Origin: a virus
Taxonomy: Duplodnaviria > Heunggongvirae > Uroviricota > Caudoviricetes
DNA: 53,826 bases
Virus record (IMG/VR): IMGVR_UViG_2917855067_000007
Reading direction: 5' to 3' (one strand)
Shown here: in pieces, positions 1,621-52,572 of the stretch
Position numbering within the stretch: the stretch's first letter is position 1
Layout: every line of letters begins with the position of its first letter
Position numbers and translations under genes: made by a program
The notes under the pieces: model-generated
The model's database searches: none
What the model was told of the DNA's origin: nothing
Seen by the model: the letters and a program-made list of their open reading frames with translations, nothing else

Positions 1621-1807
1621 AGCGTTAGTCCTGTTAACGTGTTGGTCAGAAGCCCGGTTAGTGTCCCCACACTGCCGGGCTTTACTTTACAGGTGTATGT
1701 CACCTTGCAAATCAATCCTACACGTATGGTGAAATACACTTCAAGTCTTTTTTTCTGTTTTTTTAGTTGCGTATACTGAAATACACCTATTCGAGTGGAG
1801 AACAGTA

Positions 1808-1993
1808 ATGGCAACAGGTGCGAAGAATGCAAAATCGCAAATGACCACCGTCAGAATCCCCCATGAGGTTATGGAGGATATAGAACAGTTAAAGGAAACT
1901 GGAGAAAGTACAGCCGGTTTCTTAGTAACTGCGGCAAAGGGTGAGATAAAGCGCCGCCAACGCCGTAAGAAACTGGACACGATAAAGGAATAA
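1808..1993 (+). CDS. ribbon-helix-helix (CopG/Arc-like) DNA-binding protein
   Basis: 61 aa, ATG at 1808 preceded by GGAGAA; basic C-terminus; divergent from the 1417-1620 operon. Confidence 0.45.
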   Translation: MATGAKNAKSQMTTVRIPHEVMEDIEQLKETGESTAGFLVTAAKGEIKRRQRRKKLDTIKE

Positions 1994-2164
1994 CCCCTTT
2001 TACGTCGTGTGGTTATGCTGGTAAGCATCGGTTGTATCCCGGTATAATTCATCGCGTAGAATCATCTTCCTGATAAACCCTCTCATCGTTTCTTGTTCGT
2101 TCCGGTGAGGGGGTTTTCTTTTATCTGGTCAACACTGTCAAAGCTGGCTGTACTGCAGCAGGTT

Positions 2165-3172
2165 TTAAACCAGCGTCACGGCGTTCTCATCGCTGGCCGC
2201 GTAAAGATAGCCATCCCCCAGCGCGTAACCTTCTTCACGTAAATAGCCATGCTCATAAACACCTCGTTGCGGGATATCCTCCGCGCGGTAGTGTTGGCTG
2301 TGTTTCAGCGTCAGGATCTGCAAATTTTTCAGCGTCGTAACAGCCAGGCGCTTACCCGGCATAAACGGCGGGATAAAGGCAAAACGACCGGCGACACTGC
2401 TTGTCAACATATCCCCCGCCGTCAGCGTCAGTGGTTGATCGGCCATGTTGAACAGTTTCAGGCGTTCGCGGGCGGCAAGCTGCGCGCCAACCATCACCAC
2501 AAGGCCCGGATCTTCGCGCTGACCTTCGGGGATTTTTGACGTGATGAGGCAATCAGCCAGATCGTGAACATCGGCAAAATCACCCCCTTTCCCCAGTGCG
2601 AAAGCATCAGAAATAATTTGTGAACCGTTATTGAATGTTTTTGCCAGCGAGTGCCAGCCAATATTGATATCTTCGCCGTTTTTATATTGTTCCGGGTTGG
2701 TATTTTCGGCAATCATCTTGCCGTTAAATCCAATACGGAGCATATCCCGCACCACGGCCTTCTTGAAAAAAATGATCATTTCATTACTGAAATTTTTCGC
2801 GTTTGCCATTACCGCCATTTCTTCATAAGTCAATGAGGCGCAGGAATCCGTTTCTGATAATAAAAAAGGTGTTCCGTTGGTTTTTAGTTTCTTATGAAAG
2901 CGACCTTCCTTTGCACGGCCTGTATAAAGGGAACCATCACCGATGGTGATCGTCGTGCCATCCGCACCGGTAATGTCCAGTAATGAAATATTATCAATCA
3001 GCCAGGACGAGCCTTTAACATCAAGCGTGGAACATCCCCATGCATCCGGAGATGCTTTTTCCGGCTGTGATATGGTGAAATACCCCGTATCTTCGTTTTT
3101 ATATTTAATATTAAAAGACTTAATCAGGTTTTCGTGATACTGCGTTAAATAATCTGGTGTTACATAAGACAT
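2165..3172 (-). CDS. P2-family (GpN-like) major capsid protein homolog
   Basis: 335 aa; conserved blocks GFNGK, GKGGDFADVHDLADC and EDPGLVVMVGAQLAA align to remembered P2 GpN motifs. Confidence 0.6.
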   Translation of the reverse strand: MSYVTPDYLTQYHENLIKSFNIKYKNEDTGYFTISQPEKASPDAWGCSTLDVKGSSWLIDNISLLDITGADGTTITIGDGSLYTGRAKEGRFHKKLKTNGTPFLLSETDSCASLTYEEMAVMANAKNFSNEMIIFFKKAVVRDMLRIGFNGKMIAENTNPEQYKNGEDINIGWHSLAKTFNNGSQIISDAFALGKGGDFADVHDLADCLITSKIPEGQREDPGLVVMVGAQLAARERLKLFNMADQPLTLTAGDMLTSSVAGRFAFIPPFMPGKRLAVTTLKNLQILTLKHSQHYRAEDIPQRGVYEHGYLREEGYALGDGYLYAASDENAVTLV

Positions 3173-3181
3173 AATTCTTCC

Positions 3182-4054
3182 TTAGTTGATATTTCTTTCT
3201 AATGTGAGTCGTTGCGCGCGCTGCTGGTGACGGATCGGCAACATATAATTTAAATATTCATCTGCACTCATCACCGTATGAATAAAGGCCATTTCAGAGC
3301 TGTAATAATCGCGTGATATTTCGGCGCGTTCCCGCTTATCTTCATTAAGAGGGTTAACAAAACGGGGATTAATGCTTCCTTCCGGGCGATATGTGCAGTT
3401 GTTCACCACCTTGTTAAGGGCAATCTCCAGTTTATCCATTTTCTGCCAGGCAAGGTCAGCACACTCAATTTCAGAAATCGCCTTTTTGAATGCCTTAGCA
3501 TCGAGGGATGACTTAGGCAGGGAACGGCGCAGATCGAGCAGTTCCACATCTTCCACGGCCAACAACACATCAATAACCGGCGCGAGCAATGCCAGAATGT
3601 TTTGTCTGATGGATAACTCTTCCTGCTGTGCCTTGACTTGATTTTTAATTGCTGCGTGATGCAGTCTGAATCTTTCATCTTCTAGTGATTTACGGGCCTG
3701 CTGTGCTTCTTTAATCGTCTGCGGCGCAGGAATTACAGCCGGGCTTGGCAGACGCTGCAATTCTGCTTCAAGTGCCGCCAGCTTTTCCCGTTCAGACTGG
3801 CAAAGTTCATGCCCTTTATTAACCAGTGTAAACAGTTCCTCTTTAGTCGCCGGAATGTCTACGCTTTCCCCGGAAATAGATTTATATTCGTGGGTAAGGT
3901 GCATCATTTTATTCAGGCGATAAAGTTCAATAACGCGCATTTCATACAAACCACGGTGACAACCGTCATAAGGCTGAATAAATGCCGTGTTATTAATGAC
4001 AGCAAGATCCGCATCACGATATACGCGATGGCTGATAATATCAGTAATGTTCAT
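3182..4054 (-). CDS. coiled-coil protein, putative capsid scaffold
   Basis: 290 aa immediately upstream of the capsid homolog; central helical region; no protease motif recognised, so GpO homology is not claimed. Confidence 0.35.
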   Translation of the reverse strand: MNITDIISHRVYRDADLAVINNTAFIQPYDGCHRGLYEMRVIELYRLNKMMHLTHEYKSISGESVDIPATKEELFTLVNKGHELCQSEREKLAALEAELQRLPSPAVIPAPQTIKEAQQARKSLEDERFRLHHAAIKNQVKAQQEELSIRQNILALLAPVIDVLLAVEDVELLDLRRSLPKSSLDAKAFKKAISEIECADLAWQKMDKLEIALNKVVNNCTYRPEGSINPRFVNPLNEDKRERAEISRDYYSSEMAFIHTVMSADEYLNYMLPIRHQQRAQRLTLERNIN

Positions 4055-5042: not shown

Positions 5043-6233
5043 CTAATCTTTTACCCTGCCACTCGCCAGCGATTCCATATAGTCGGCATACCATTGAAGC
5101 ATTTCCCGGCGTCCATCCAGATAGCGGGCATGATTATATGTGCCACGGATGGTATTTTTATCAACATGTGCAAGCTGGGTTTCGATCCATTCGGTGTTAT
5201 ACCCTTTCTCATACAAAATTGTGCTCATGGTATGTCGGAAACCATGCCCGCAAGCTTTGCCCTTATACCCGAGTCGCTTTATTAGCTGATTAATTGCTCC
5301 TTCACTCATTGGCTTTCGCGGGTCGTTCCGGCCCGGAAAAATGAAAGGATTGCGGCCCGACAACTCTTTTAATTGCCCGAGAATAACCATAGCCTGGCGA
5401 GAAAGCGGGACAACGTGCGGACGTCTTTTCTTCATTCGCTCTTTGGGGATCTCCCACAAGGCATTATCAAAATCAATCTCTGACCACGGGGCCGCGCGTA
5501 ATTCAACCGGACGTAACCCCACAAGAATAAGCAGACGCAGCCCCAAAATAACCTGAACGTTACTTTTTGCCGTCGCCAGCGTCTGGAAAAATTCGGGTAA
5601 CTCTTCGGCTTCCAGATGGGGGAAGTGCTCCCCTTCGTGTCCTTCCATAGCCACAGATAGATCAGGGGCGGGGTTATATTCTGCGCGGGCGGTAACGATC
5701 GCATACTTCCAGACCTCCCCGCACCACTGGCGAACCTTACGGGCCTTTTCAGTCGCTCCCCTATTCTCGATGCGTTTAAGCGTATTCAGCAAATCAAGGG
5801 GCTTTATTTCCGTGATGGGGCGTTTTCCAATCCAAGGGAATATGTCTTTACTGAATGCTTCCAGAATGTCCGAGGCGTACCCCTCAGACCATTTCTTCTG
5901 CCGTTCTGTATGCCACTCTCTGGCGATTTCTTCGAAGGTGTTTTTGATTTGCGCTTCGCGGTTCAATTTTTCTTCCCGCTTCGCTTCGTTCGGGTCGATC
6001 CCCCCAGCCATACCCCTTTTGGCCTCATCTCGTTTCGCCCTGGCATCAGCCAGGGTTACATCGGGATATACCCCCAGCGCCAACAGCTTTTCTTTTCCGG
6101 CTACCCGGTACTTTAAACGCCAGTACCGGGAACCATTGGGATTAACAAGCAGATAAAGCCCACCACCATCGGCCAGTTTATAGGGTTTTTCTTTCGGTTT
6201 GGCCGTATCGACCTGACGGGCATTTAGTTTCAT
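5043..6233 (-). CDS. int: tyrosine integrase, P4-type
   Basis: ATG at 6231-6233 (MKLNARQVDTAKPKEKPYKLADGGGLYLLV); C-terminal R/H/Y catalytic region (HGFRHT); 140 bp from the att repeat. Confidence 0.85.
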   Translation of the reverse strand: MKLNARQVDTAKPKEKPYKLADGGGLYLLVNPNGSRYWRLKYRVAGKEKLLALGVYPDVTLADARAKRDEAKRGMAGGIDPNEAKREEKLNREAQIKNTFEEIAREWHTERQKKWSEGYASDILEAFSKDIFPWIGKRPITEIKPLDLLNTLKRIENRGATEKARKVRQWCGEVWKYAIVTARAEYNPAPDLSVAMEGHEGEHFPHLEAEELPEFFQTLATAKSNVQVILGLRLLILVGLRPVELRAAPWSEIDFDNALWEIPKERMKKRRPHVVPLSRQAMVILGQLKELSGRNPFIFPGRNDPRKPMSEGAINQLIKRLGYKGKACGHGFRHTMSTILYEKGYNTEWIETQLAHVDKNTIRGTYNHARYLDGRREMLQWYADYMESLASGRVKD

Positions 6234-6395
6234 TTGGGGGTATCTCCAGTAGCCCACACAGCATATACCCCCGAATATCCCCCCAAAAGACGTGGATTTT
6301 AGGAGATATTGATAGACGTTAAAACACTATCGGGGGCGCTCAAAGCTAGAGTATATGCGGGTTTGTTGGATTTTAATAGACGGGAAAAGACGTTG

Positions 6396-6444
6396 AAATG
6401 GTGCCGATAATAGGAGTCGAACCTACGACCTTCGCATTACGAAT
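6396..6444. repeat. attL core: 49 bp copy of the thrW 3' end
   Basis: identical to 52380-52428 by direct comparison. Confidence 0.85.
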
Positions 6445-7380: not shown

Positions 7381-8292
7381 ATGAGAAGAACAGATCATCT
7401 ACGTGGAATTACGGCTTTTATTGCCACAGCCCAGCAGGGGAGTTTTACGGCAGCAGCGGAAAAGCTGGGACTGACAAAGTCGGCCGTAGGAAAAAGCGTC
7501 AGTCGCCTGGAAGACCGCCTCGGGCTGAAGCTTTTTCAACGTTCCACCCGGCGGTTGAGCCTGACGCCGGATGGTGAGCGTTTTCTTACCAGCTGCCAGA
7601 GCGCAATAGATATCCTGGAGCAGGCAGAGGCGGAACTGACGTCACATACCTGCCAGCCATCCGGGCGCCTGCGGGTAGATTTACCCGCAGCCTTCGGACG
7701 ACAGCGCATCCTTCCTATCCTGCTTGATATCACCCGACGCTACCCCGAACTGGCATTGACCGTTACGTTCAGCGAGCGGTTCGTTGACCTGATTGATGAG
7801 GGGCTCGATCTTGTCGTTCGCATTGGTGAGCTGTCAGACAGCAGCGGACTGGTTGCCAGAAGGTTGACAACCCAGAAGCTGGTGATCTGCGCCTCTCCAG
7901 ATTATCTGTTCAACCACGGAGAGCCTGTCAGTATCGATGACCTGAATCACCATCAGTGCGTTGTCGGCTTTCGCCGTAACCAGCCTGTTTCGTGGTTGCT
8001 GAAAGAGGGGGGTGGTCAAATCAGCCGCTTTGTCCCTCCGCCGACCCATGAGTTTGCCGACGGCGACGCAATGCTCGCAGCTACCCTGGCTGGAGGGGGA
8101 TTGTCCCAACTCCCCCTCTGGTTGGTGGGCAGATATCTCGACGAGGGTAAATTGCGGGAAGTGCTGCCCGGACACTCCGGCGGGGAGATGCCTATCAGCG
8201 CGCTGTGGCCAAAAAGCCGCCAGCTACTCCCCAAAATCCGCTATGTAGTGGATACCCTGGTCAGAGCTGCGGAAGACGGCCTGCTTGATTAA
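7381..8292 (+). CDS. LysR-family transcriptional regulator
   Basis: 303 aa; N-terminal HTH (ITAFIATAQQGSFTAAAEKLGLTKSAVGKSVSRLE) and LysR substrate-binding domain. Confidence 0.85.
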   Translation: MRRTDHLRGITAFIATAQQGSFTAAAEKLGLTKSAVGKSVSRLEDRLGLKLFQRSTRRLSLTPDGERFLTSCQSAIDILEQAEAELTSHTCQPSGRLRVDLPAAFGRQRILPILLDITRRYPELALTVTFSERFVDLIDEGLDLVVRIGELSDSSGLVARRLTTQKLVICASPDYLFNHGEPVSIDDLNHHQCVVGFRRNQPVSWLLKEGGGQISRFVPPPTHEFADGDAMLAATLAGGGLSQLPLWLVGRYLDEGKLREVLPGHSGGEMPISALWPKSRQLLPKIRYVVDTLVRAAEDGLLD

Positions 8293-9402
8293 TTATTCCC
8301 TGCTATCGGACCAGAAGGGGTAATCCGTATAGCCTTTTTCATCTCCGCCATACATCGTTGCCCGGTTAACGTCATTCAACGGCCAGTCGTTAACCATACG
8401 TTCCACAAGATCCGGGTTCGCAATGTAAGGCCGACCAAAACCAATCAGGTCAGCCTTCCCCTCCTGGAGATACGCTTCGGCACGCTGCTTATCAAAGCCA
8501 CCGGCAATAATCAAAGGCCCGGAATAGGCTGCACGAAATTTTTCAATAAACCCGGCAGGGATGGCCTGTTCTCCCAGTGTTTGCTGGTCGCTCAGATGAA
8601 CATACGAGAGAGAACGGGCGCTGAGTTTATCTGCAAGCATCAGCCAGGTTTCTTCCTCGCCATCAAAAGGATGCATGTCAAACAGACGCCCGAAAGGAGC
8701 CAGACGTATACCTGTTTTACCTGAGCCGATGGCCGTAGAGATTGCGTCAGTCACTTCCAGAACAAAGCGCAGGCGATTGTCAGTATCCGCGCCACCGTAC
8801 TCATCCTGACGAGTATTCAGCCCACCATTAATAAACTGCTCAAGCAGATAGCCATTGGCGGCGTGGATCTCAACACCATCAAAGCCCGCACGGACAGCAT
8901 TTTTAGCGGCCTGAACGTAATCCTGCACCACGGTTTTAATCTCGGGGATCGACAGCGCACGGGGTTCCGATACCGGAACCGGACCGGGTTTGCCGTTTTC
9001 GTCGCGTGCGTAACAGGTGGAATTATTGGCTTTAACCGCTACCGAACTAACGGGGGCCTGCCCATTAGCCTGCAAACTTGTGTGAGAAATTCGGCCGACG
9101 TGCCAAAGCTGAATATAAATTTTTCCGCCAGCGTCGTGCACCGCTTTTGTAACTTTTCCCCATCCCTGCACCTGAGCATCGCTGTAGATTCCTGGAGTGA
9201 AAAGATAACCCTGTCCCTGGACGGAGATTTGCGATCCCTCCGTAATAATGAGCCCTGCGGATGCGCGCTGCTGATAATATTTTGCGGTCAGCCCATCTGG
9301 AGTATCGCCTGATATTGCCCGTGAACGGGTCATTGGTGCCATAACGACGCGATTTGCCAAATCGGTGTCACCGGCCTGAAATGGGGTAAATAATTTTTCC
9401 AT
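8293..9402 (-). CDS. NADH:flavin oxidoreductase, Old Yellow Enzyme family (NemA-like alkene reductase)
   Basis: ATG at 9400-9402 with AAGGAGA upstream; OYE TIM-barrel motifs. Confidence 0.85.
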   Translation of the reverse strand: MEKLFTPFQAGDTDLANRVVMAPMTRSRAISGDTPDGLTAKYYQQRASAGLIITEGSQISVQGQGYLFTPGIYSDAQVQGWGKVTKAVHDAGGKIYIQLWHVGRISHTSLQANGQAPVSSVAVKANNSTCYARDENGKPGPVPVSEPRALSIPEIKTVVQDYVQAAKNAVRAGFDGVEIHAANGYLLEQFINGGLNTRQDEYGGADTDNRLRFVLEVTDAISTAIGSGKTGIRLAPFGRLFDMHPFDGEEETWLMLADKLSARSLSYVHLSDQQTLGEQAIPAGFIEKFRAAYSGPLIIAGGFDKQRAEAYLQEGKADLIGFGRPYIANPDLVERMVNDWPLNDVNRATMYGGDEKGYTDYPFWSDSRE

Positions 9403-9782
9403 TTTTATCTCCTTTACTGAAGGAAATATGATGGTCCCAACGATGTAATAAAAAAACACTACTCTGGTCCGAACAGAGTAGACATAATTTCTACATTTAG
9501 TGTTCTCTCGGTATTAAGTCGTCATATTTTGGTTTTTAGGTGATGTCTCACGTAGAGATAAAGCCTGCCGTAAAATTGATGAAGACTCAGTATGTCCGCT
9601 TCTGGCACACAAGCGACATCCAAGCCTCTCCGGCCAGGGCATGAAGGGGCGCCAGTTCATAGACGGTGCAGTGATTCTGTCCAGTGCTGGCATTCCGCAA
9701 GCTGCAGCTGCGCGGCAAGCCTGAAACTTTACGCTCGATGCGCCGGTGAACACGGCCCGTAGCTGGCATCTTTACACATAAC

Positions 9783-29192: not shown

Positions 29193-32873
<3,681 letters not shown>

Positions 32874-38869: not shown

Positions 38870-39232
38870 TCATTCATCCCCCAGTTCGGTGATGATCAGT
38901 TCCAGCTTTCCACCCTTGGTAACGGGCATTTTCACAACGCGATAATCAACGACCTGAGCATCATCCAGCCAGAAACCTGCTTTGGTGAGTGCGTCAAAAG
39001 CTGCTTTTTGCAGATTATCCAGGTCACGGCGACGGCGATCCGGCATGTGGCACTCAATACGGATTTTCACTGGCATAGCCAGACCGATATCCAGCATGGA
39101 GCCTTTGATGATTCGGGCGACGTTATCGCGGTATACCTGCCCCTCTGCGCTGATGTGCGTGCGCCCGCGATTATGGCGGTAGTAGCGGTTATTGCTCGGC
39201 GGCCAGGGTAGTGTGATGTAGTAAGTATTCAC
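38870..39232 (-). CDS. rusA: Holliday junction resolvase RusA
   Basis: GTG start giving (M)[30 protein letters not shown]; RusA family. Confidence 0.85.
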
Positions 39233-39519
39233 GCCTTGATTACCCCTTCTTTCAGCCAGATAACCTGCGTTCTCGCCATACCTTCCAGCGCGCATTCTTT
39301 TGCATATCCAGCGTCAACAAAATTCGTGCGACGGTCGATCTCATCGTGACAGGCAGAACATGCAATGGTGGCAATCAGGTCTGGCGGTTTAATACCGGTG
39401 CCGCACAATCCAGCCAGCCGGATATGTGCCAGTACAGACGTTTCAGGGTTGCCATTACATACGCCAGGGATTCTTACCTGGCATTCCCGACCACGCGCTG
39501 CTTTTCTCAAATCAGCCAT
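39229..39519 (-). CDS. ybcO: YbcO-like protein (DUF1364)
   Basis: 96 aa [35 protein letters not shown]... matches DLP12 YbcO as recalled. Confidence 0.8.
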
Positions 39520-39682
39520 GATTCCTCCTTGCTGCCAGTCGCAACCATTTTTTATCAACCAGGCTGGCGGTATATCCGAGCAGTGTTGGTATTTCGGATG
39601 GCTTCAGCTCAGGCTTACGCTTACGACGATTTGGTACTCTGTAGATGTGTCCGTTCATGACACGAATAAGCGGTGTAGCCAT
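39513..39682 (-). CDS. ninE: NinE
   Basis: 56 aa [37 protein letters not shown]...; overlaps ybcN stop and ybcO start; not in ORF track. Confidence 0.7.
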
Positions 39683-40137
39683 TACGCCTCCTGCTTGTCG
39701 CGCAGTAGCTGGAACTCGCAGCTCTGCGGAATAGTCAGGTGGCAGCCAATATTCATCGCCCAGGCTTCAACCTTACACAGGAAGACATACATCTCTCCGG
39801 TATCAAGATCGGAGGTATGGCGTAACGACTGGATCGTAGTGATTTCACCGGTTACGACATCAACCAGGTCTTTGGTTTCATAACCGAGGTATGTGTGTTT
39901 GAGAGCATCTTTTACCCATGCTGCAGTAGCGAACGTTTTACCCCTGCTGATGAGGTATTCACTGATTTCGCTGTACCACATGTGGCTGAGTGCATTCTGG
40001 GAAAGACTGCGTTTCTCACGCCACGGTTTAAGCACCATGCGAAAGCATTTTCCGTCCTCCAGATAAGGCTGGATCTGCTGGCCGATAGCGGTGAAGTTGC
40101 CGCGATGTAATTTGATGCCGTCTTGTGGGAGGTTCAC
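39682..40137 (-). CDS. ybcN: YbcN-like protein, in the NinB position
   Basis: 151 aa [39 protein letters not shown]... matches DLP12 YbcN as recalled. Confidence 0.8.
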
Positions 40138-44631: not shown

Positions 44632-44735
44632 TTCCTATTGGTATTGCAATGAATGGATAATAGCAATGCGTATTAATCCAAGCAATAGCAAAACGTGTTT
44701 TGACCATCAATACGCAAGCGTATAAATTAAAACTT
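44632..44735. promoter_or_regulatory. OR region with divergent pR and pRM
   Basis: minus strand: TTGCTT, 17 nt, TATTAT (pR); plus strand: TTGACC...TATAAA ending a few nt before the cI ATG (leaderless-like); palindrome ATTGCAAT and AATAGCAAT-type motifs. Confidence 0.5.
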
Positions 44736-45428
44736 ATGAAAAAAGAAACTCTTGCTGATCGCTTAAACCTAGCGATGGAACAATCTGGAATGTCTCAAGG
44801 CGCTCTTGCAAAGGCGTCTGGCGTAGCTCAACCCACAATCTGGAGACTGACAAGCGGCAACGCGCGCGGCTCAACAAAAATTGTTGAAATAGCTAATGCA
44901 TTGGGTGTTCGAACAGAGTGGCTCTCATCAGGCATAGGCCCGATGAGAAATGACGGTCAACAATCAGGGAAGCCTGCTGTCAACCATTCCAAATACTTCA
45001 AGATTGACGTTCTTGATATAGAAGTCAGTGCCGGGCCGGGTGTCATCAACCGTGAGTTTGTAGAAGTCCTACGCTCGGTTGAGTACTCGTTTGACGATGC
45101 TCGTCACATGTTCGATGGCAGGAAGGCGGAAAATATCCGCATCATTAACGTGCGTGGTGACAGCATGTCAGGAACTATCGAACCAGGTGATCTGCTGTTC
45201 GTTGATATCACGGTTAAATCTTTCGACGGTGATGGTATCTATGCGTTTCTGTATGACGACACAGCCCATGTAAAGCGCCTGCAAATGATGAAGGATAAGC
45301 TACTGGTCATCTCTGATAACAAAAGCTACTCACCGTGGGACCCGATCGAGAAAGACGAGATGAACCGGGTATTCATCTTCGGTAAGGTTATTGGGAGCAT
45401 GCCGCAGACGTATAGGAAACATGGTTAA
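44736..45428 (+). CDS. cI: CI repressor (XRE HTH plus LexA-like S24 peptidase domain)
   Basis: 230 aa; HTH MSQGALAKASGVAQPTIWRL; C-terminal GDSMSGTIEPGDLLFVD and K residue of S24 self-cleavage domain. Confidence 0.85.
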   Translation: MKKETLADRLNLAMEQSGMSQGALAKASGVAQPTIWRLTSGNARGSTKIVEIANALGVRTEWLSSGIGPMRNDGQQSGKPAVNHSKYFKIDVLDIEVSAGPGVINREFVEVLRSVEYSFDDARHMFDGRKAENIRIINVRGDSMSGTIEPGDLLFVDITVKSFDGDGIYAFLYDDTAHVKRLQMMKDKLLVISDNKSYSPWDPIEKDEMNRVFIFGKVIGSMPQTYRKHG

Positions 45429-45717
45429 TCCCATGTCTACATAATAGACAATATTAATGATGGCGATAGCCAGAGCTCTCGCCATGACACTTTATGTTGT
45501 ATTGAATTATGCCACCCTACCACTATATATAGTAAACAACTTTCCAGCACCCCTTACCAGAATAATATGCTACCTAATAAGGATAAACAGCAATAAATCC
45601 TATCGTTTTGTAAGTGACGGATGTACATAAAGTTATTAATATGTACTAACAGTTACCTTTCAGGTAAAATGCAAGCATTATACAACTGGTTATTTATACA
45701 GTTAAGGAGGGCATAAC

Positions 45718-46188
45718 ATGGCTTACTCAGCTGCAGCGGTTGCTAATGCCTTCATTGAAAAGGCTTTAAAGGGTAAGTTAAAGAATCTGACTCCAATGAA
45801 GCTCCAGAAGCTTCTTTTTTATACTCAATCATGGCATTTAAAGTTACGCGACAACACACCGCTTTTTGATGATCTTTTCGCCAGATGGAAATTCGGGCCT
45901 GTTATTCCACCGCTTTATCATATGTTGAAGAAGTATGGAGCAAACGAAATCACTGAAAAGATTAGCGTCATCTTAGAGTGTGATGGCGAATTAAAAAGAA
46001 ATCACCCCTACAATTCAAAAAGATGATCAAGAAGCTCAAGCTCTTATCAATAAAATCATCGAAGTATATGGGAAATTTTCAGGTACCGAACTGTCTAACT
46101 TAACACATGCGCCTGGTACAGCATGGAGCAAGGGAAGTGCAGATGGTGGCCCCATTTCTCATGAGGATATGGCGAAGCATATTCACTA
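45718..46188 (+). CDS. Panacea-domain (DUF4065) protein, reading frame interrupted in the deposited sequence
   Basis: AAGGAGG then ATG; N-terminal 102 aa (AYSAAAVANAFIEKA...LTPMKLQKLLFYTQSWHL...FGPVIPPLYHMLKKYG) stop at 46024-46026; C-terminal part continues in +1 frame to the TAA at 46186-46188. Confidence 0.55.
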
Positions 46189-46572
46189 ATGAAGTCGTTT
46201 GATAGCATATCTATACCCAGTGGCACAAATGTAGGCTCATCGACAGTATCAAGTGCCGAAGATGAGCCGCCAATTACAGAAAGAATATCCAGAGGTGACG
46301 ACCTCAATGCTCAAAAAGCGGCAGACGCCAAGTCAAACAGGCAACTTCGTGAGATATTGGCGGAAAAAGCGTACCGTGTCGTAAAAAAATCACTTTACGG
46401 ATGGGCTTTGTTTCTTTTCTTTCAAGGCTGGTTTTCTATCATTGGGATAAAGGTTTTTTCCGATAAGGTAGTTTTGGCTGTAACAACAGCTGTTACTCTT
46501 AATGTATTCGCTGCTTTTCTTGGTGTTATCAGGGGATTATTCCCTGCTGCCAGTAGAAAAGATAAAAGTTAA
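46189..46572 (+). CDS. membrane protein with two C-terminal TM helices, candidate toxin/effector
   Basis: 127 aa; ATG overlaps upstream stop (TAATG); polar N-terminus, then two hydrophobic helices. Confidence 0.5.
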   Translation: MKSFDSISIPSGTNVGSSTVSSAEDEPPITERISRGDDLNAQKAADAKSNRQLREILAEKAYRVVKKSLYGWALFLFFQGWFSIIGIKVFSDKVVLAVTTAVTLNVFAAFLGVIRGLFPAASRKDKS

Positions 46573-46599
46573 CCCGGCCTCCGTGCCGGGTTTTCTTTT
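46573..46599 (+). terminator. rho-independent terminator ending the rex-slot operon
   Basis: hairpin cccggc-ctccgtg-ccggg followed by TTTTCTTTT. Confidence 0.75.
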
Positions 46600-46727
46600 G
46601 CCTCCCCTCATCACGCATATCGTCCTAAAAAACACCACAACCTCGCTTCAGTTATTGCTGTGCAATGCAAGTCACAAAATTAATTCTTTTTGCTATCAAA
46701 CATTTAATATCAAAACACATCAACCAA

Positions 46728-46780
46728 TAGCAATAAGTATTGATATCACCAATAGCAATAGCTATTATCACCATATCGCA
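46728..46780. promoter_or_regulatory. OL operator region
   Basis: ccaatagcaata twice plus perfect palindrome aatagctatt, same motif family as OR. Confidence 0.45.
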
Positions 46781-46966
46781 ACAACACAACGATACGGCAA
46801 CCACCTGATTCACCGTTGCGATGACCGCTTAGATCCGCAGCTTGAATTTCAGCAGGCTCCGGGGAGTGCGAGGGGTGAAGCGGACGCGTGAACGTCGGTG
46901 TGACCAGCTGAAATCAACTCAACTCAACACTTCATACCTCAGTCGCTTCAACGAGGCGGCTTAGTT

Positions 46967-47257
46967 ATGACAACCGGCGGCCATCCACCGCCTGAATACG
47001 CGCAGAAGTCTCTATATGTTCAGCAGCCCAGCTTACGGGCAGGAGTTTTTATGGTTCATCAACATTACGGAACGCAGACCGTTAATCGCGGTGCGGTCAT
47101 GCCAGGAATGCTGGTCAAACACAAAGATGGTACCTGGACTGCCTCAGCTAATTTACGCGGACGGCTTTATCTGCATCGCGGCATCGAGCGCACTTATACC
47201 CGTGATTTGCTCGTGGAAGTTTTTCTCGACGGACGCGGTAACGGCCTGAATCACTAA
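46967..47257 (+). CDS. hypothetical protein, first ORF of the leftward operon
   Basis: 96 aa, ATG with GAGG upstream; not Arg-rich, so not N-like. Confidence 0.3.
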
Positions 47258-47332
47258 TCCCCTTTCCTGTTTTCCTAATCAGCCTGGCATTTCGCGGGCG
47301 ATATTTTCACAGCCATTTTCAGGAGTTCAGCC

Positions 47333-47629
47333 ATGAACGCTTATTACATTCAGGATCGTCTTGAGGCTCAGAGCTGGGCGCGTCACTACCAGCAGATCGC
47401 CCGTGAAGAGAAAGAGGCAGAACTGGCAGACGACATGGAAAAAGGCCTGCCCCAGCACCTGTTTGAATCGCTATGCATCGATCATTTGCAACGCCACGGG
47501 GTCAGCAAAAAAGCCATTTCTCGTGCATTTGATGACGATGTTGAGTTTCAGGAGCGCATGGCAGAACACATCCGGTACTTGGTTGAAACCATTGCTCACC
47601 ACCAGGTTGATATTGATTCAGAGGTATAA
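47333..47629 (+). CDS. gam: Gam (RecBCD inhibitor), short form
   Basis: 98 aa [38 protein letters not shown]... matches lambda Gam. Confidence 0.9.
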
Positions 47630-47634
47630 AACGA

Positions 47635-48420
47635 ATGAGTACTGCACTCGCAACGCTGGCAGGGAAGCTGGCTGAACGTGTCGGCATGGATTCTGTCGAC
47701 CCACAGGAACTGATCACCACTCTTCGCCAGACGGCATTTAAAGGTGATGCCAGCGATGCGCAGTTCATCGCATTGCTGATCGTCGCCAACCAGTACGGTC
47801 TTAATCCGTGGACGAAAGAAATTTACGCCTTTCCTGATAAGCAGAACGGCATCGTTCCGGTGGTGGGCGTTGATGGCTGGTCCCGCATCATCAATGAAAA
47901 CCAGCAGTTTGATGGCATGGACTTTGAGCAGGACAACGAATTCTGTACATGCCGGATTTACCGCAAGGACCGTAATCATCCGATCTGCGTTACCGAGTGG
48001 ATGGATGAATGCCGCCGCGAACCATTCAAAACCCGCGAAGGCAGAGAAATCACGGGGCCGTGGCAGTCGCATCCCAAACGGATGTTACGGCATAAAGCCA
48101 TGATTCAGTGTGCCCGTCTGGCCTTCGGATTTGCGGGTATCTATGACAAGGATGAAGCCGAGCGCATTGTCGAAAATACCGCATACACTGCAGAACGTCA
48201 GCCGGAACGCGACATCACTCCGGTTAACGATGAAACCATGCAGGAGATTAACACTCTGCTGATCGCCCTGGATAAAACATGGGATGGCGACTTATTGCCG
48301 CTCTGTTCCCAGATATTTCGCCGCGACATTCGTGCATCGTCAGAATTGACACAGGCCGAAGCAGTGAAAGCTCTTGGATTCCTGAAACAAAAAGCCACTG
48401 AGCAGAAGGTGGCAGCATGA
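47635..48420 (+). CDS. bet: Bet (Red-beta recombinase)
   Basis: 261 aa, lambda Bet-like. Confidence 0.95.
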
Positions 48421-49097
48421 CACCAGACATTATCCTGCAGCGTACCGGGATCGACGTGAGAGCTGTCGAGCAGGGGGATGATGCGTGGCACAAATTACGC
48501 CTCGGCGTCATCACAGCTTCAGAAGTTCACAACGTGATAGCAAAACCCCGCTCCGGAAAGAAGTGGCCTGACATGAAAATGTCCTACTTCCACACCCTGC
48601 TTGCCGAGGTTTGCACCGGTGTGGCTCTGGAAGTTAACGCTAAAGCACTGGCCTGGGGAAAACAGTACGAGAAAGACGCCAGAACCCTGTTTGAGTTCAC
48701 TTCCGGCGTGAATGTTATTGAATCCCCGATCATCTATCGCGACGAAAGTATGCGCACCGCCTGCTCTCCCGATGGTTTATGCAGTGACGGCAATGGCCTT
48801 GAGCTGAAATGCCCGTTTACCTCCCGGGATTTCATGAAGTTCCGGCTCGGTGGTTTCGAGGCCATAAAGTCGGCTTACATGGCCCAGGTGCAGTACAGCA
48901 TGTGGGTGACGCGAAAAGATGCCTGGTACTTTGCCAACTATAACCCGCGTATGAAGCGTGAAGGCCTGCATTATGTCGTGGTTGAGCGGGATGAAAAGTA
49001 CATGGCGAGTTTTGACGAGATGGTGCCGGAATTCATCGAAAAAATGGACGAGGCACTGGCTGAAATTGGTTTTGTATTTGGGGAGCAATGGCGATGA
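48417..49097 (+). CDS. exo: Exo (lambda exonuclease)
   Basis: 226 aa, lambda Exo-like. Confidence 0.95.
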
Positions 49098-49252
49098 AGC
49101 ATCCTCACGATAATATCCGGGTAGGCGCGATCACTTTCGTCTACTCCGTTACAAAGCGAGGCTGGGTATTTCCCGGCCTTTCTGTTATCCGAAATCCACT
49201 GAAAGCACAGCGGCTGGCTGAGGCGATAAATAATAAACGGGGGGCTGTATGA
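49094..49252 (+). CDS. hypothetical small protein, 52 aa
   Basis: ATG overlaps exo stop; stop overlaps the methyltransferase start; not in ORF track. Confidence 0.35.
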
Positions 49253-49806
49253 CTGATTTCACCGGAAGCAATACTCCTGCCGAACATCGCGACAGCTGGC
49301 GCACACCACCAGAGATTTTTGCTGCGCTGAATGCAGAGTTCGTTTTTCAACTTGATGCTGCAGCCAACGAAAAAAACCGGCTATGTCGGCTTTTTATCTC
49401 ACAGGAGCAGAACACATTAACCACTTCATGGCCTGAAGCAATGGGATATGCCTCTGGTTATGTCTGGCTGAATCCACCATACAGCAATATTTCCCCTTTT
49501 GTGAAAAAGGCAGCCACTGAAAACAAATTCAGTAGTGTGGGATGTGTAATGTTATTACCTGCTGACACGTCTGTCGGATGGTTTCATGAAGCGATACAAA
49601 CCGCCAGTGAGGTCAGATTCATCACGGCAGGACGACTGGCATTTATTAACCCACTCACCGGGAAACCCGTGAGTGGAAATAATAAAGGCTCGATGCTCAT
49701 TATCTGGCACCCATACCCCCGTACACACTGCCACTTTACGACCGTTGATCGTGGCGAGTTGATGGCGTTCGGCTCAAGGATTCTTGCCCGTCGGGAGGCT
49801 GCATGA
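49249..49806 (+). CDS. phage Dam-like N6-adenine DNA methyltransferase
   Basis: 185 aa; catalytic motif NPPY (WLNPPYSNI). Confidence 0.75.
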   Translation: MTDFTGSNTPAEHRDSWRTPPEIFAALNAEFVFQLDAAANEKNRLCRLFISQEQNTLTTSWPEAMGYASGYVWLNPPYSNISPFVKKAATENKFSSVGCVMLLPADTSVGWFHEAIQTASEVRFITAGRLAFINPLTGKPVSGNNKGSMLIIWHPYPRTHCHFTTVDRGELMAFGSRILARREAA

Positions 49807-49886
49807 CAACCACGGAATGCATTTTTCTGGCAGCGGGCTTCATATTCTGTGTGCTTATGCTTGCCGACATGGGACTTGTTCAATGA
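49803..49886 (+). CDS. 27 aa hydrophobic peptide
   Basis: ATG overlaps the methyltransferase stop and its stop overlaps the next start; MTTTECIFLAAGFIFCVLMLADMGLVQ is a single TM-like segment; very short. Confidence 0.25.
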   Translation: MTTTECIFLAAGFIFCVLMLADMGLVQ

Positions 49887-50098
49887 CACATCAGCAAGAA
49901 AACGCCCTTCGCAGCATTGCCCGTCAGGCTAATTCTGAAATCAAAAAAGCCAGACAGCAGTTTCCGGATAAAAACGTCGATGACATTTGCCGTAGCGTTC
50001 TGAAAAAGCACCGCAAAACGGTAACGATGATGGGATTCACACCGACTCATTTAAGCCTGGCGATCGGCATGTTAAACGGCGTCTTTAAGGAACGGTGA
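49883..50098 (+). CDS. hypothetical protein, 71 aa
   Basis: ATG at 49883 coupled to the upstream peptide. Confidence 0.4.
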   Translation: MTHQQENALRSIARQANSEIKKARQQFPDKNVDDICRSVLKKHRKTVTMMGFTPTHLSLAIGMLNGVFKER

Positions 50099-50120
50099 AC
50101 ATGAAAAGCAAAATCATCAG

Positions 50121-50141
50121 GGAGCTACAGGCTCCTTTTTT
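50121..50141 (+). terminator. possible weak terminator inside the early-left operon
   Basis: 5 bp stem ggagc-tacag-gctcc then TTTTTT. Confidence 0.35.
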
Positions 50142-50196
50142 ATTATTCGCATTCACCCTCAAGCGTATTAACCAACAATTCAGGGATTAATGAAAG

Positions 50197-50418
50197 ATGG
50201 CGGACATAATTGATTCAGCATCAGAAATTGAAGAATTACAGCGCAACACAGCAATAAAAATGCGCCGCCTGAACCACCAGGCTATATCTGCCACTCATTG
50301 TTGTGAGTGTGGCGATCCCATAGATGAACGAAGACGACTGGCCGTTCAGGGTTGTCGGACTTGCGCCAGTTGCCAGCAAGATCTGGAGCTTATCCGCAAA
50401 CAAAGGGGGATTAAGTGA
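50197..50418 (+). CDS. TraR/DksA-family C4 zinc-finger protein
   Basis: 73 aa; CCECGDPIDERRRLAVQGCRTCASC. Confidence 0.6.
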   Translation: MADIIDSASEIEELQRNTAIKMRRLNHQAISATHCCECGDPIDERRRLAVQGCRTCASCQQDLELIRKQRGIK

Positions 50419-50750
50419 TGGCTAACCTGCAACTTGCTGTTAAAAGTGAATACTTCGATGCCATGATTCGCGGAGAGAAAACGGAAGAGTATCGCCTGTG
50501 TAATGACTACTGGAAAAAGCGCCTCGTTAACCGCGAGTATGGCAGTCTGATCATCACGAAAGGATATCCGAAGCGCGACGATTCCAGTCGCAGAATTGAT
50601 GTTCCGTATGACGGATATGAAGTGAAGACAATCACACATCCACACTTTGGCGATAAACCGGTAAAGGTGTTCGCTATAAAGGTGAATATCAGCACTGAAT
50701 ATCAATCCGCACAACACAAGGTCAAGAATGTTCAGAGTGATTTACCCTAA
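50415..50750 (+). CDS. hypothetical protein, possibly ASCH-domain
   Basis: 111 aa; GEKTEEYR resembles the ASCH GxKxxExR motif; start overlaps upstream stop. Confidence 0.35.
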   Translation: MMANLQLAVKSEYFDAMIRGEKTEEYRLCNDYWKKRLVNREYGSLIITKGYPKRDDSSRRIDVPYDGYEVKTITHPHFGDKPVKVFAIKVNISTEYQSAQHKVKNVQSDLP

Positions 50751-51006
50751 CACCTGGTACGTCGACCACCACGGCACTCCCTGCAAAATCCTGCGTTCCA
50801 CTCACAACAAAGTTCACTACATCCGAAAAGGCAGAACATGTATCGCCAGCATGTTCCGCTTTAATCATGACTTTGAACCTGTGAATAAAGCTGATGCAGA
50901 TCGGATAGCAGAAGAGATCGAAACGGCAGAACACATTAAGAAGTTACGTGACATGCGTTCAAAAAGCAGAGGTAACCATGGAATCATACAGTCTCACACT
51001 CGATGA
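50728..51006 (+). CDS. hypothetical protein, 92 aa
   Basis: ORF overlapping both neighbours; basic. Confidence 0.3.
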   Translation: MFRVIYPNTWYVDHHGTPCKILRSTHNKVHYIRKGRTCIASMFRFNHDFEPVNKADADRIAEEIETAEHIKKLRDMRSKSRGNHGIIQSHTR

Positions 51007-51328
51007 GGCCTGTCAGTTTCTCAAGATATCCAGACCTACCGCTACCAACTGGATACGAACAGGCCGCCTACAGGCAACACGCAAAGACCCCACTAAACCA
51101 AAATCTCCTTACCTCACAACGCGACAAGCCTGCATTGCGGCGCTTCAGTCTCCGCTGCATACTATCAAGGTGAGCGCGGGTGATGGCATAACAGAGGAAA
51201 GAAAATGTCACTCTTCCGCAGAAGTGAAATATGGTACGCCAGTTTCACATTGCCGAACGGTAAAAGATTTAAACAGTCTCTTGGAACAAAGGACAAAAGG
51301 CAGGCAACAGAGCTCCATGACAAGCTAA
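50978..51328 (+). CDS. xis: excisionase-like DNA-binding protein
   Basis: ATG at 50978 with AGAGG upstream; [29 protein letters not shown]; overlaps the int start, so the real 3' end is uncertain. Confidence 0.5.
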
Positions 51329-52368
51329 AGGCTGAAGCATGGCGGGTCAGCAAACTTGGTGAAATACCTGATATGACGTTCGAGGAAGCGTGTGTCAGGT
51401 GGCTTGAAGAGAAAGCACATAAAAAATCACTGGACGATGACAAAAGCCGGATCGGATTCTGGCTTCAACATTTCGCAGGGATGCAACTAAGAGACATTAC
51501 TGAATCAAAAATTTATTCAGCAATTCAGAAAATGACGAACCGGCGTCATGAGGAAAACTGGAAACTCAGGGCAGAAGCATGCAGAAAAAAAGGGAAACCT
51601 GTTCCAGAATACACGCCAAAACCAGCGTCCGTTGCAACGAAGGCAACGCATCTTTCATTTATAAAGGCCCTGCTAAGAGCCGCAGAGCGTGAATGGAAAA
51701 TGCTGGATAAGGCACCAATTATTAAAGTGCCTCAACCAAAGAATAAACGGATCCGCTGGCTGGAGCCTCATGAAGCACAAAGGCTGATTGATGAATGTCC
51801 GGAGCCATTAAAGTCTGTTGTTGAATTTGCACTGGCAACAGGTTTAAGACGCTCGAACATCATCAACCTTGAATGGCAACAAATAGACATGCAGCGCCGG
51901 GTGGCATGGATAAACCCGGAAGAGAGTAAATCAAACCGCGCAATTGGCGTTGCGCTGAATGATACTGCATGTCGCGTATTGAAAAAACAAATAGGGAATC
52001 ATCACCGTTGGGTATTTGTGTATAAGGAAAGCTGTACCAAACCAGACGGAACGAAAGCGCCAACAGTAAGGAAGATGCGGTATGACGCAAACACAGCCTG
52101 GAAAGCGGCGCTGAGACGAGCTGGTATTGATGATTTCAGATTTCACGACTTGAGACACACCTGGGCAAGTTGGCTGGTTCAAGCCGGAGTCCCGTTGTCA
52201 GTGTTACAGGAAATGGGTGGCTGGGAGTCTATCGAAATGGTTCGTCGATATGCTCACCTCGCGCCTAATCACCTTACCGAACACGCACGGCAAATAGACT
52301 CGATTCTGAACCCATCGGTCCCAAATTTGTCCCAGTCAAAAAATAAGGAAGGTACTAATGATGTGTAA
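51205..52368 (+). CDS. int: tyrosine integrase of the lambdoid prophage
   Basis: 387 aa; C-terminal catalytic R...[10 protein letters not shown]...Y; ends 15 bp from the tRNA 3' end. Confidence 0.9.
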
Positions 52369-52379
52369 CTTATTGATTT

Positions 52380-52428
52380 AAATGGTGCCGATAATAGGAG
52401 TCGAACCTACGACCTTCGCATTACGAAT
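52380..52428. repeat. attR core within thrW
   Basis: 49 bp identical to 6396-6444. Confidence 0.85.
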
Positions 52429-52458
52429 GCGCTGCTCTACCAACTGAGCTATATCGGC
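52383..52458 (-). tRNA. thrW: tRNA-Thr (anticodon CGU)
   Basis: reverse complement gccgatatagctcagttggtagagcagcgcattcgtaatgcgaaggtcgtaggttcgactcctattatcggcacca; cloverleaf with CGT anticodon and CCA end. Confidence 0.9.
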
Positions 52459-52572
52459 CCTGAAAGAACATGTTCACGAACGTGAATCACGGTGGACAAG
52501 GTTAAAACTAACCGGGCGATGCGTCAATGGCCTTGTGAATCAAATGGCTACTTTTGCATCACCCGATTTTAT

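Follow-up and report, generated by a model that had tools for sequence, protein, structure and literature searches.

Which site would be methylated by a small methyltransferase encoded in the early region of a lambdoid prophage, and at what stage would this matter in a host that has a Dam methylase of its own? The question is raised by a gene at positions 49249..49806 of the 53,826-nt stretch of caudoviral DNA analysed here (IMG/VR virus record IMGVR_UViG_2917855067_000007), which we call the window. In a preliminary description this gene was taken for an orphan Dam-like adenine methyltransferase with an NPPY motif, translationally coupled to small open reading frames (ORFs) of the early-left operon and methylating the prophage or the host at an unknown motif. 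The gene is already catalogued, and it belongs to a family with characterised members. The comparisons below point to GATC as the probable target and to synthesis of the enzyme after induction or infection.

The enzyme and its probable target site

The gene and its catalytic motif are positioned as follows.

49249..49806, plus strand: orphan phage N6-adenine methyltransferase of the T1/VT2/HP1 "Dam" family (PF05869, TIGR01712), which occupies the slot of lambda orf63 exactly
49471..49482, plus strand: NPPY codons (motif IV, the catalytic motif of amino-methyltransferases); the motif does not vary among 22 close homologues and the Dam proteins of VT2, T1 and HP2

The ORF starts with ATG and encodes 185 amino acids (aa). 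NPPY (residues 75-78) is the sole match to the pattern [DNS]PP[YFW] in the protein; a search for FxGxG in the same 185 residues found none. The protein matches the Pfam family PF05869 "Dam" with E = 2.3e-56 and 190.5 bits (cut-off 28.1), residues 6-177 being aligned to positions 1-168 of the 169 in the profile. It also matches the NCBIfam equivalog TIGR01712, "phage N-6-adenine-methyltransferase" (166.9 bits, cut-off 97.05, profile positions 3-165 of 165), and phrog_111, "DNA methyltransferase" (7e-78). The ratio of non-synonymous to synonymous substitution rates (dN/dS) against close alleles is 0.06-0.10, and the gene is under purifying selection; against distant homologues dS is saturated and no ratio could be obtained. 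Given the three profile scores and the low dN/dS, the ORF is not a chance one. The ORF call, the single motif match and the membership in PF05869 and TIGR01712 bear out what had been described preliminarily as a 185-aa adenine methyltransferase with NPPY.

The protein is 47% identical to orf32 of VT2-Sakai (E = 4e-56) in an alignment that spans almost the whole protein with its C-terminal helix, 45% identical to T1 Dam across 164 residues (E = 2e-40), and 40% identical to HP2 Dam. The three phage enzymes are 33-38% identical among themselves, that is, they are farther apart from each other than each of them is from the window protein. Alignment of 22 homologues of 66-84% identity has 59 invariant columns. 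When the window protein is aligned with the VT2, T1 and HP2 Dam proteins and three other homologues, 31 columns are invariant, NPPYS included. The family-invariant columns include D36, W73-NPPYS79, D106, S108, W111-F112, R129, N144 and K146.

The AlphaFold2 model of the protein is a confident one with a single domain (predicted local distance difference test 83.8, predicted template modelling score 0.82). Its best fold matches in PDB are N6-adenine methyltransferases, the first of them being PCIF1/CAPAM (6irx), with a query-normalised template modelling (TM) score of 0.60 and E = 3e-4. In the viral fold library, phage N-6-adenine methyltransferases rank at the top and are followed by giant-virus PCIF1-like proteins. 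No homologous chain, E. coli Dam and T4 Dam included, was found in a sequence search of PDB with either the single protein or a 22-sequence profile; judged by this search, the PF05869 family is without a solved structure. From the profiles and the model, the product is predicted to be a small, stand-alone DNA N6-adenine methyltransferase dependent on S-adenosylmethionine.

E. coli Dam, T4 Dam and DpnM (PF02086, alpha class) probably make the same product, G-m6A-TC, where m6A is N6-methyladenine, and they too belong to the Rossmann-fold methyltransferase superfamily. However, they have no detectable sequence similarity to the window protein, which lacks FxGxG and is about 100 residues shorter, and the TM score of the predicted model against E. 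coli Dam (2ore/2g1p) is 0.29-0.31 only. No match of the protein to PF02086 (D12 class) was found at E <= 0.01; motifs, profile, PDB sequence search and fold all place it outside this family. The epithet "Dam-like" is thus correct as the Pfam name and as a statement about the probable product, but not as a statement about shared ancestry beyond the fold, as E. coli Dam is not matched by sequence and the TM score is about 0.3.

A side observation concerns the fold. The predicted fold of PF05869 is nearer to PCIF1/CAPAM, the eukaryotic writer of m6Am, and to the giant-virus PCIF1-like proteins than to bacterial Dam. PCIF1/CAPAM is a cap-specific mRNA adenosine N6-methyltransferase of about 480 aa, whose substrate is capped RNA and which is 11-15% identical to the window protein; the link between them is one of predicted fold only.

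HP1 Dam, from a Haemophilus phage like HP2 Dam, is specific for GATC. Both are members of the family of the window protein; together with M.Btr190III, described below, they come from P2-like and other phage backgrounds. The target of M.EcoVT2Dam, the product of VT2-Sakai orf32 that is also present in 933W and Phi24B, has been reported as GATC (PMC6602927), and M.EcoT1Dam has been called GATC-modifying (PMC4996451). M.Btr190III, a prophage enzyme of Bibersteinia that is 35% identical to T1 Dam, was cloned and produced GATC methylation together with significant off-target methylation (PMC4996451). Since the window protein falls inside the divergence spanned by these reported GATC enzymes, GATC is the parsimonious prediction for its target, and we consider it quite probable. 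The equivalog match and the reports on relatives do not support the preliminary view that the motif is unknown, and the predicted site is one already made by host Dam.

The relatives resemble the window protein to different degrees. M.EcoVT2Dam is a member of the same Pfam and TIGRFAM families, has a similar length (175 versus 185 aa) and, as here, is an orphan encoded in an early operon of a lambdoid phage. However, its gene lies between NinB and NinE in the nin region of the rightward operon, and not in the exo-xis region; moreover, the two proteins are 53% divergent, and therefore the transfer of specificity is not certain. M.EcoT1Dam, encoded by gene ST20 of T1, shares the motifs SNTP..D.W.TP, LDAAA, W.NPPYS and GNNKG with the window protein, whereas it comes from a virulent phage and is longer (237 aa): its N-terminus is extended by about 45 aa, 14 residues are inserted, and its C-terminus differs. 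The closest published analogue in behaviour is M.Btr190III, which is prophage-borne, silent in the lysogen and active on GATC when cloned, although it is markedly off-target.

Exact replacement of orf63 and predicted expression from the early operon

Three short genes adjoin the methyltransferase gene.

49088..49252, plus strand: orf60a homologue (DUF1317, 54 aa; PF07026, E = 1.1e-33), called orf60a in phage PhiR30_1; its stop overlaps the methyltransferase start
49803..49886, plus strand: unannotated hydrophobic 27-aa ORF, MTTTECIFLAAGFIFCVLMLADMGLVQ, ATGA-coupled at both ends; a part of the orf61 module, outside the methyltransferase cassette
49883..50098, plus strand: orf61 homologue (71 aa), 96% identical to residues 23-93 of VT2-Sakai orf10

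All junctions between these genes are overlaps of the ATGA type. The start codon of the methyltransferase gene (ATG, 49249-51) overlaps the stop codon of the 54-aa ORF (TGA, 49250-52), its stop codon (TGA, 49804-06) overlaps the start codon of the 27-aa ORF (ATG, 49803-05), and the stop codon of the latter overlaps the ATG at 49883 of the orf61 homologue. The proposed translational coupling to small ORFs is therefore well founded, as there are ATGA overlaps at both ends of the gene.

The same overlaps mark the borders of a replacement. In the alignment with VT2-Sakai, the two sequences are nearly identical across exo and orf60a, and the shared stretch ends with the ATG at 49249-51, which in VT2-Sakai is the start codon of orf63 (DUF1382). 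Identity returns at GCATGA (49801-06), which contains the stop codon of the methyltransferase gene here and that of orf63 there, and in both genomes this codon runs into the start of the 27-aa ORF. The arrangement in lambda is alike. The methyltransferase gene is a cassette that replaces lambda orf63 exactly, from the start codon to the stop codon. The annotated gene order in PhiR30_1, orf60a-methyltransferase-orf61, is identical.

The gene is also an orphan, as had been proposed. Neither a restriction endonuclease nor a second methyltransferase was found among the neighbours within approximately 5 kb or in the collinear E. coli SF-468 prophage as annotated in RefSeq. The locus does not have the composition of a Type II restriction-modification system: the flanking genes are orf60a, the 27-aa ORF and orf61, common to lambda and VT2-Sakai, both of which have no methyltransferase at the exo-xis site despite having these three genes.

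The larger context is a lambdoid prophage of about 46 kb, inserted at thrW/proA and bounded by a 49-bp exact direct repeat. The relevant features are listed in the order of their positions.

6396-6444, strand not given: attL copy of the 49-bp repeat, an exact direct repeat of the attR copy
44700-45428, plus strand: cI-like S24 repressor, upstream of the gene with a Panacea domain and its partner
46571-46592, both strands: bidirectional terminator-like hairpin, after the cI and Panacea genes and before the pL candidate
46740..46768, plus strand: predicted pL promoter (TTGATA-17-TATTAT; consensus match), overlapping TATCACC repeats that resemble lambda operators
47333-47629, plus strand: gam, named, like bet and exo, after RefSeq annotation of near-identical loci
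47635-48420, plus strand: bet (Pfam RecT match)
48417-49097, plus strand: exo (Pfam YqaJ match)
49158..49180, plus strand: terminator-like hairpin (9 pairs, 6 of them G-C, with a T-rich tail) inside orf60a, 69 nt 5' of the methyltransferase start
50119..50137, plus strand: terminator-like hairpin with a T-run between orf61 and a TraR/DksA-like gene (-10.2 kcal/mol)
52380..52428, no strand assigned: attR copy of the repeat, inside the tRNA-Thr(CGT) gene 52383-52458, beside proA

The genes 3' of the cI-like repressor follow each other on the plus strand in the order kil-gam-bet-exo-orf60a-methyltransferase-27aa-orf61-TraR-ASCH-DUF4222-xis-int. Since this order is on one strand and downstream of the repressor, the region is identified as the leftward early operon, in agreement with the location suggested initially. 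From gam to orf61 the genes are contiguous or overlapping, and O, P, NinB/YbcN, RusA and Q are on the opposite strand of the prophage. The candidate at 46740-46768, about 2.5 kb from the methyltransferase gene, is the only promoter-like site found on the plus strand in 45400-52500, and we infer that it is pL. The hairpin at 49158-49180 has a predicted folding energy of -17.6 kcal/mol; it is identical to lambda 31287-31265 and may correspond to tL3, which is located near this position. Two further observations were made in this region. Terminator-like hairpins, those at 49158-49180 and 50119-50137 among them, are over-represented in 45400-52500 (18 versus 7.5 +/- 2.8 in shuffled sequences). In 46769-47050 on the plus strand, between the predicted pL and kil, no ORF has the size of an N antiterminator gene, and the only ORF present is a TTG-initiated one of 40 aa (46842-46964), which has an arginine-rich stretch, RGVRGVKRTRERR, and no PHROG match.

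The methyltransferase gene should be silent in the lysogen, given its position 3' of both the predicted pL and the hairpin that has an exact counterpart in lambda. Data on related systems are consistent with this. The exo-xis genes have been described among the earliest pL transcripts (PMC8614690). Expression of the Phi24B dam gene changed significantly upon induction, and four of the five profiled CMAT genes had a lytic pattern (PMC3342100). M.Btr190III was apparently silent in its own lysogen, where the host dam orthologue would mask any GATC methylation (PMC4996451), and silence in lysogens has been reported repeatedly for prophage methyltransferases. The preliminary suggestion that the enzyme methylates the prophage or the host in the lysogen is not supported: there are operator-like repeats at the predicted pL and a terminator-like hairpin upstream of the gene, and homologues have behaved like genes of the lytic cycle. 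A comparison of the methylomes of the lysogen and of a cured strain, which had been put forward as a check, would most likely show nothing new and be uninformative about activity. Because host Dam masks GATC methylation, a lysogen methylome with no new motif would not refute activity of the enzyme.

Proposed role

As a whole, the locus is best explained by an enzyme that methylates GATC, is repressed in the lysogen, and is made after induction or infection, when it completes the methylation of phage DNA; we consider this explanation likely. Repression in the lysogen would be lifted by nothing but induction or infection; the gene would then be read from pL with antitermination, and translation would proceed through coupling to orf60a. 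The enzyme would methylate GATC, perhaps along with some less stringent activity at other sites when it is abundant, and would provide extra GATC-methylating capacity while host Dam is limiting for the fast-replicating phage DNA. The packaged genomes would then be fully methylated, and in the next host they would resist restriction enzymes whose cleavage is limited to unmethylated GATC, and other Dam-sensitive enzymes. Published work describes endogenous Dam as limiting when DNA is present in many copies, and assigns phage Dam an anti-restriction function. The role of a protective modification also fits the existence of relatives fused to a C5-cytosine methyltransferase, such as the 637-aa protein of phage CobraSix.

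In the annotation, "unknown motif" can be replaced by "probably GATC". Induced prophages that supply extra GATC methylation can be of consequence for escape from restriction, for defence of the DpnI type, and for Dam-triggered sensors of the retron-Sen2 type. Work on such defences in E. coli strains with this gene should therefore take it into account.

Several points weigh against this explanation. Firstly, a search of the literature found no published specificity for any enzyme more than 47% identical to the window protein, and the usual rule for the transfer of a motif requires at least 80% identity. Secondly, GATC methylation looks redundant in a dam+ host, and we infer its benefit from general knowledge. 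Thirdly, the promoter and terminator calls are consensus matches only. Finally, no N-like antiterminator was recognised when the ORFs from pL to kil were compared with PHROG, and therefore read-through of the upstream hairpin has to be assumed. The scarcity of GATC in the prophage argues neither for nor against the explanation and does not discriminate between it and its rivals: there are 2.37 sites per kb in the prophage (6396-52458) versus 4.38 in the flanking chromosome, and the observed-to-expected ratio for the whole window is 0.61, the sparsest 2-kb bins being at about 12-16 kb.

The alternative that survives best is that an enzyme of the same family has a different or much relaxed specificity, e.g. 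for a degenerate site related to GATC. It would then be a broad anti-restriction modifier acting on sites that host Dam does not make. We consider this unlikely, since every characterised relative that was found is reported to methylate GATC, across mutual identities of 33-38%, and the window protein is inside this span. However, its identity to the characterised enzymes is 40-47% only, which is below the 80% rule, and M.Btr190III methylated other sites when cloned. A length of 185 aa, with no separate target-recognition domain visible in the secondary-structure listing of the model, would also be compatible with relaxed specificity, as would the promiscuity of other prophage methyltransferases. 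The known non-specific enzymes among the latter, Hia5 (alpha class) and M.EcoGII (beta class, 349 aa), resemble the window protein in being orphan, prophage-borne and silent in lysogens, and in the anti-restriction rationale. Nevertheless they are of other classes: both have FxGxG and DPPY, whereas the window protein has NPPY and no FxGxG.

A link to Hia5 and M.EcoGII was rejected for this reason, on the basis of published motif descriptions. Two other candidates were rejected as relatives. M.EcoGIX, whose site "SAY" is degenerate, was considered for membership in the family, but it is encoded on a plasmid and acts specifically on single strands. The GATC enzyme from the methylome of Campylobacter coli is DpnA-like and belongs to another family.

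One may also suppose, more generally, that the exo-xis enzyme is more than a duplicate of host Dam, either having a relaxed or other site, or methylating GATC under selection for shielding from MutH or for a reset of the lysis-lysogeny balance in place of orf63. This seems rather improbable. If true, it would give a functional meaning to the exact swap of orf63 in about 6% of complete E. coli genomes.

The two forms of selection just mentioned can be considered separately. A regulatory role, in which GATC methylation tunes the lysis-lysogeny decision or the stability of the prophage and replaces the developmental role of orf63, is suggested by the precision of the replacement, from start to stop codon. 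Moreover, orf63 and its neighbours have been reported to affect lytic versus lysogenic development. Host Dam is reportedly needed for stable lysogeny of 933W, and the authors of PMC3342100 suggested that Phi24B Dam might supplement it. However, gene-for-gene replacement is ordinary mosaicism in lambdoid phages, and relatives of the gene are found at unrelated positions, in the nin region of Stx and Erwinia phages and in lytic T1-like phages, which fits a portable accessory gene better. Nor is there evidence of expression in the lysogen, the predicted position being 3' of pL and of a terminator-like hairpin, and we see little chance of such a role.

A partnership with the Red system would mean that rapid and full GATC methylation blocks nicking by MutH and thereby preserves mismatched heteroduplexes formed in recombination of diverged phages. 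MutH does not cut GATC that is fully methylated, and mismatch repair becomes weaker when Dam is overproduced. The gene directly follows gam-bet-exo-orf60a, its CobraSix homologue follows recT-exo, and the VT2-Sakai homologue follows NinB/Orf. This adjacency, however, may merely reflect shared membership in early operons, and in T1 the methyltransferase gene (39024-39737) is apart from the recE/erf-like genes (30378-32164); the chance of such a partnership is very small.

That the gene is an inactive remnant is most improbable: although its activity is a prediction and 68 of its 312 matches in E. coli genomes span less than 80% of the gene, the domain is full-length with NPPY and all family-invariant residues intact, dN/dS is low, the protein is present in an isolated phage, and the start-codon context is that of orf63 in VT2-Sakai.

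Distribution and other features of the window

Copies with 95-99% DNA identity to the methyltransferase gene were found in 312 of 5426 complete E. coli genomes, all of them on the chromosome. The DUF1317 gene adjoins the methyltransferase gene in 15 of 15 records among the matches listed. In NCBI, the exact protein is named "phage N-6-adenine-methyltransferase" and occurs in 167 contigs, and its cluster at 90% identity has 537 members. The isolated phage carrying the methyltransferase, at 98-99% identity, is PhiR30_1. Homologues of 65-85% identity occur throughout Enterobacteriaceae, and relatives are encoded in 2067 of 50,697 phage records, among them the Stx, Erwinia and T1-like phages mentioned above. 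In the papers searched, no direct characterisation of the enzyme located in the exo-xis region was found.

Some close homologues are a part of a larger protein. In the Enterobacter phage CobraSix, a 74%-identical copy forms the C-terminal domain of the 637-aa fusion, encoded 3' of recT-exo at locus coordinates 1633-3546; this would be a bifunctional enzyme methylating both C5 of cytosine and N6 of adenine. Such fusions with a C5-cytosine methyltransferase (PF00145), with homologues of 72-74% identity as the C-terminal domain, were seen in the proteins P0051, P0060, P0067, P0068, P0071 and P0087.

The 27-aa peptide downstream of the methyltransferase is encoded at at least 90% identity in 175 phage records, including lambda. 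The ORF is at approximately 5407-5487 (minus strand) in VT2-Sakai (NC_000902) and at 31008-30925 (minus strand) in lambda (J02459), where the DNA is identical to that of the window. Five diverged copies differ by 8 synonymous and 4 non-synonymous substitutions in the 27-aa frame, versus 2 and 10 in the overlapping frame of the orf61 extension. With this ORF, the exo-xis region may encode a genuine small membrane peptide.

The extension in question is the 22-residue N-terminal part of the 93-aa orf61 of Stx phages (VT2-Sakai 5192-5473, minus strand), which overlaps the 27-aa ORF. In phages P27 and Perceval its frame is interrupted by a stop codon. The conserved gene therefore seems to be the 71-aa form, whose ATG or GTG start overlaps the stop codon of the 27-aa ORF. 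In lambda, orf61 is frameshifted after approximately 29 residues of the 71-aa core, in agreement with the truncation described in PMC8614690.

Three more observations concern other parts of the window. An ORF with a SocA/Panacea domain and its 127-aa partner (phrog_33656, function unknown) are located at 45718-46572 on the plus strand, between the repressor gene and pL, that is, at the position of lambda rexA/rexB. The pair may be a toxin-antitoxin or exclusion module that the lysogen expresses. At the other end of the prophage, a second gene for a tyrosine integrase (5043-6257, minus strand) directly adjoins attL in the tRNA-Thr repeat, pointing to a tandem island at thrW. Within the segment between the repeats, close to its attL border and ahead of the genes for tail fibres, the region 7381-9459 encodes a LysR regulator and an oxidoreductase of the Old Yellow Enzyme type.

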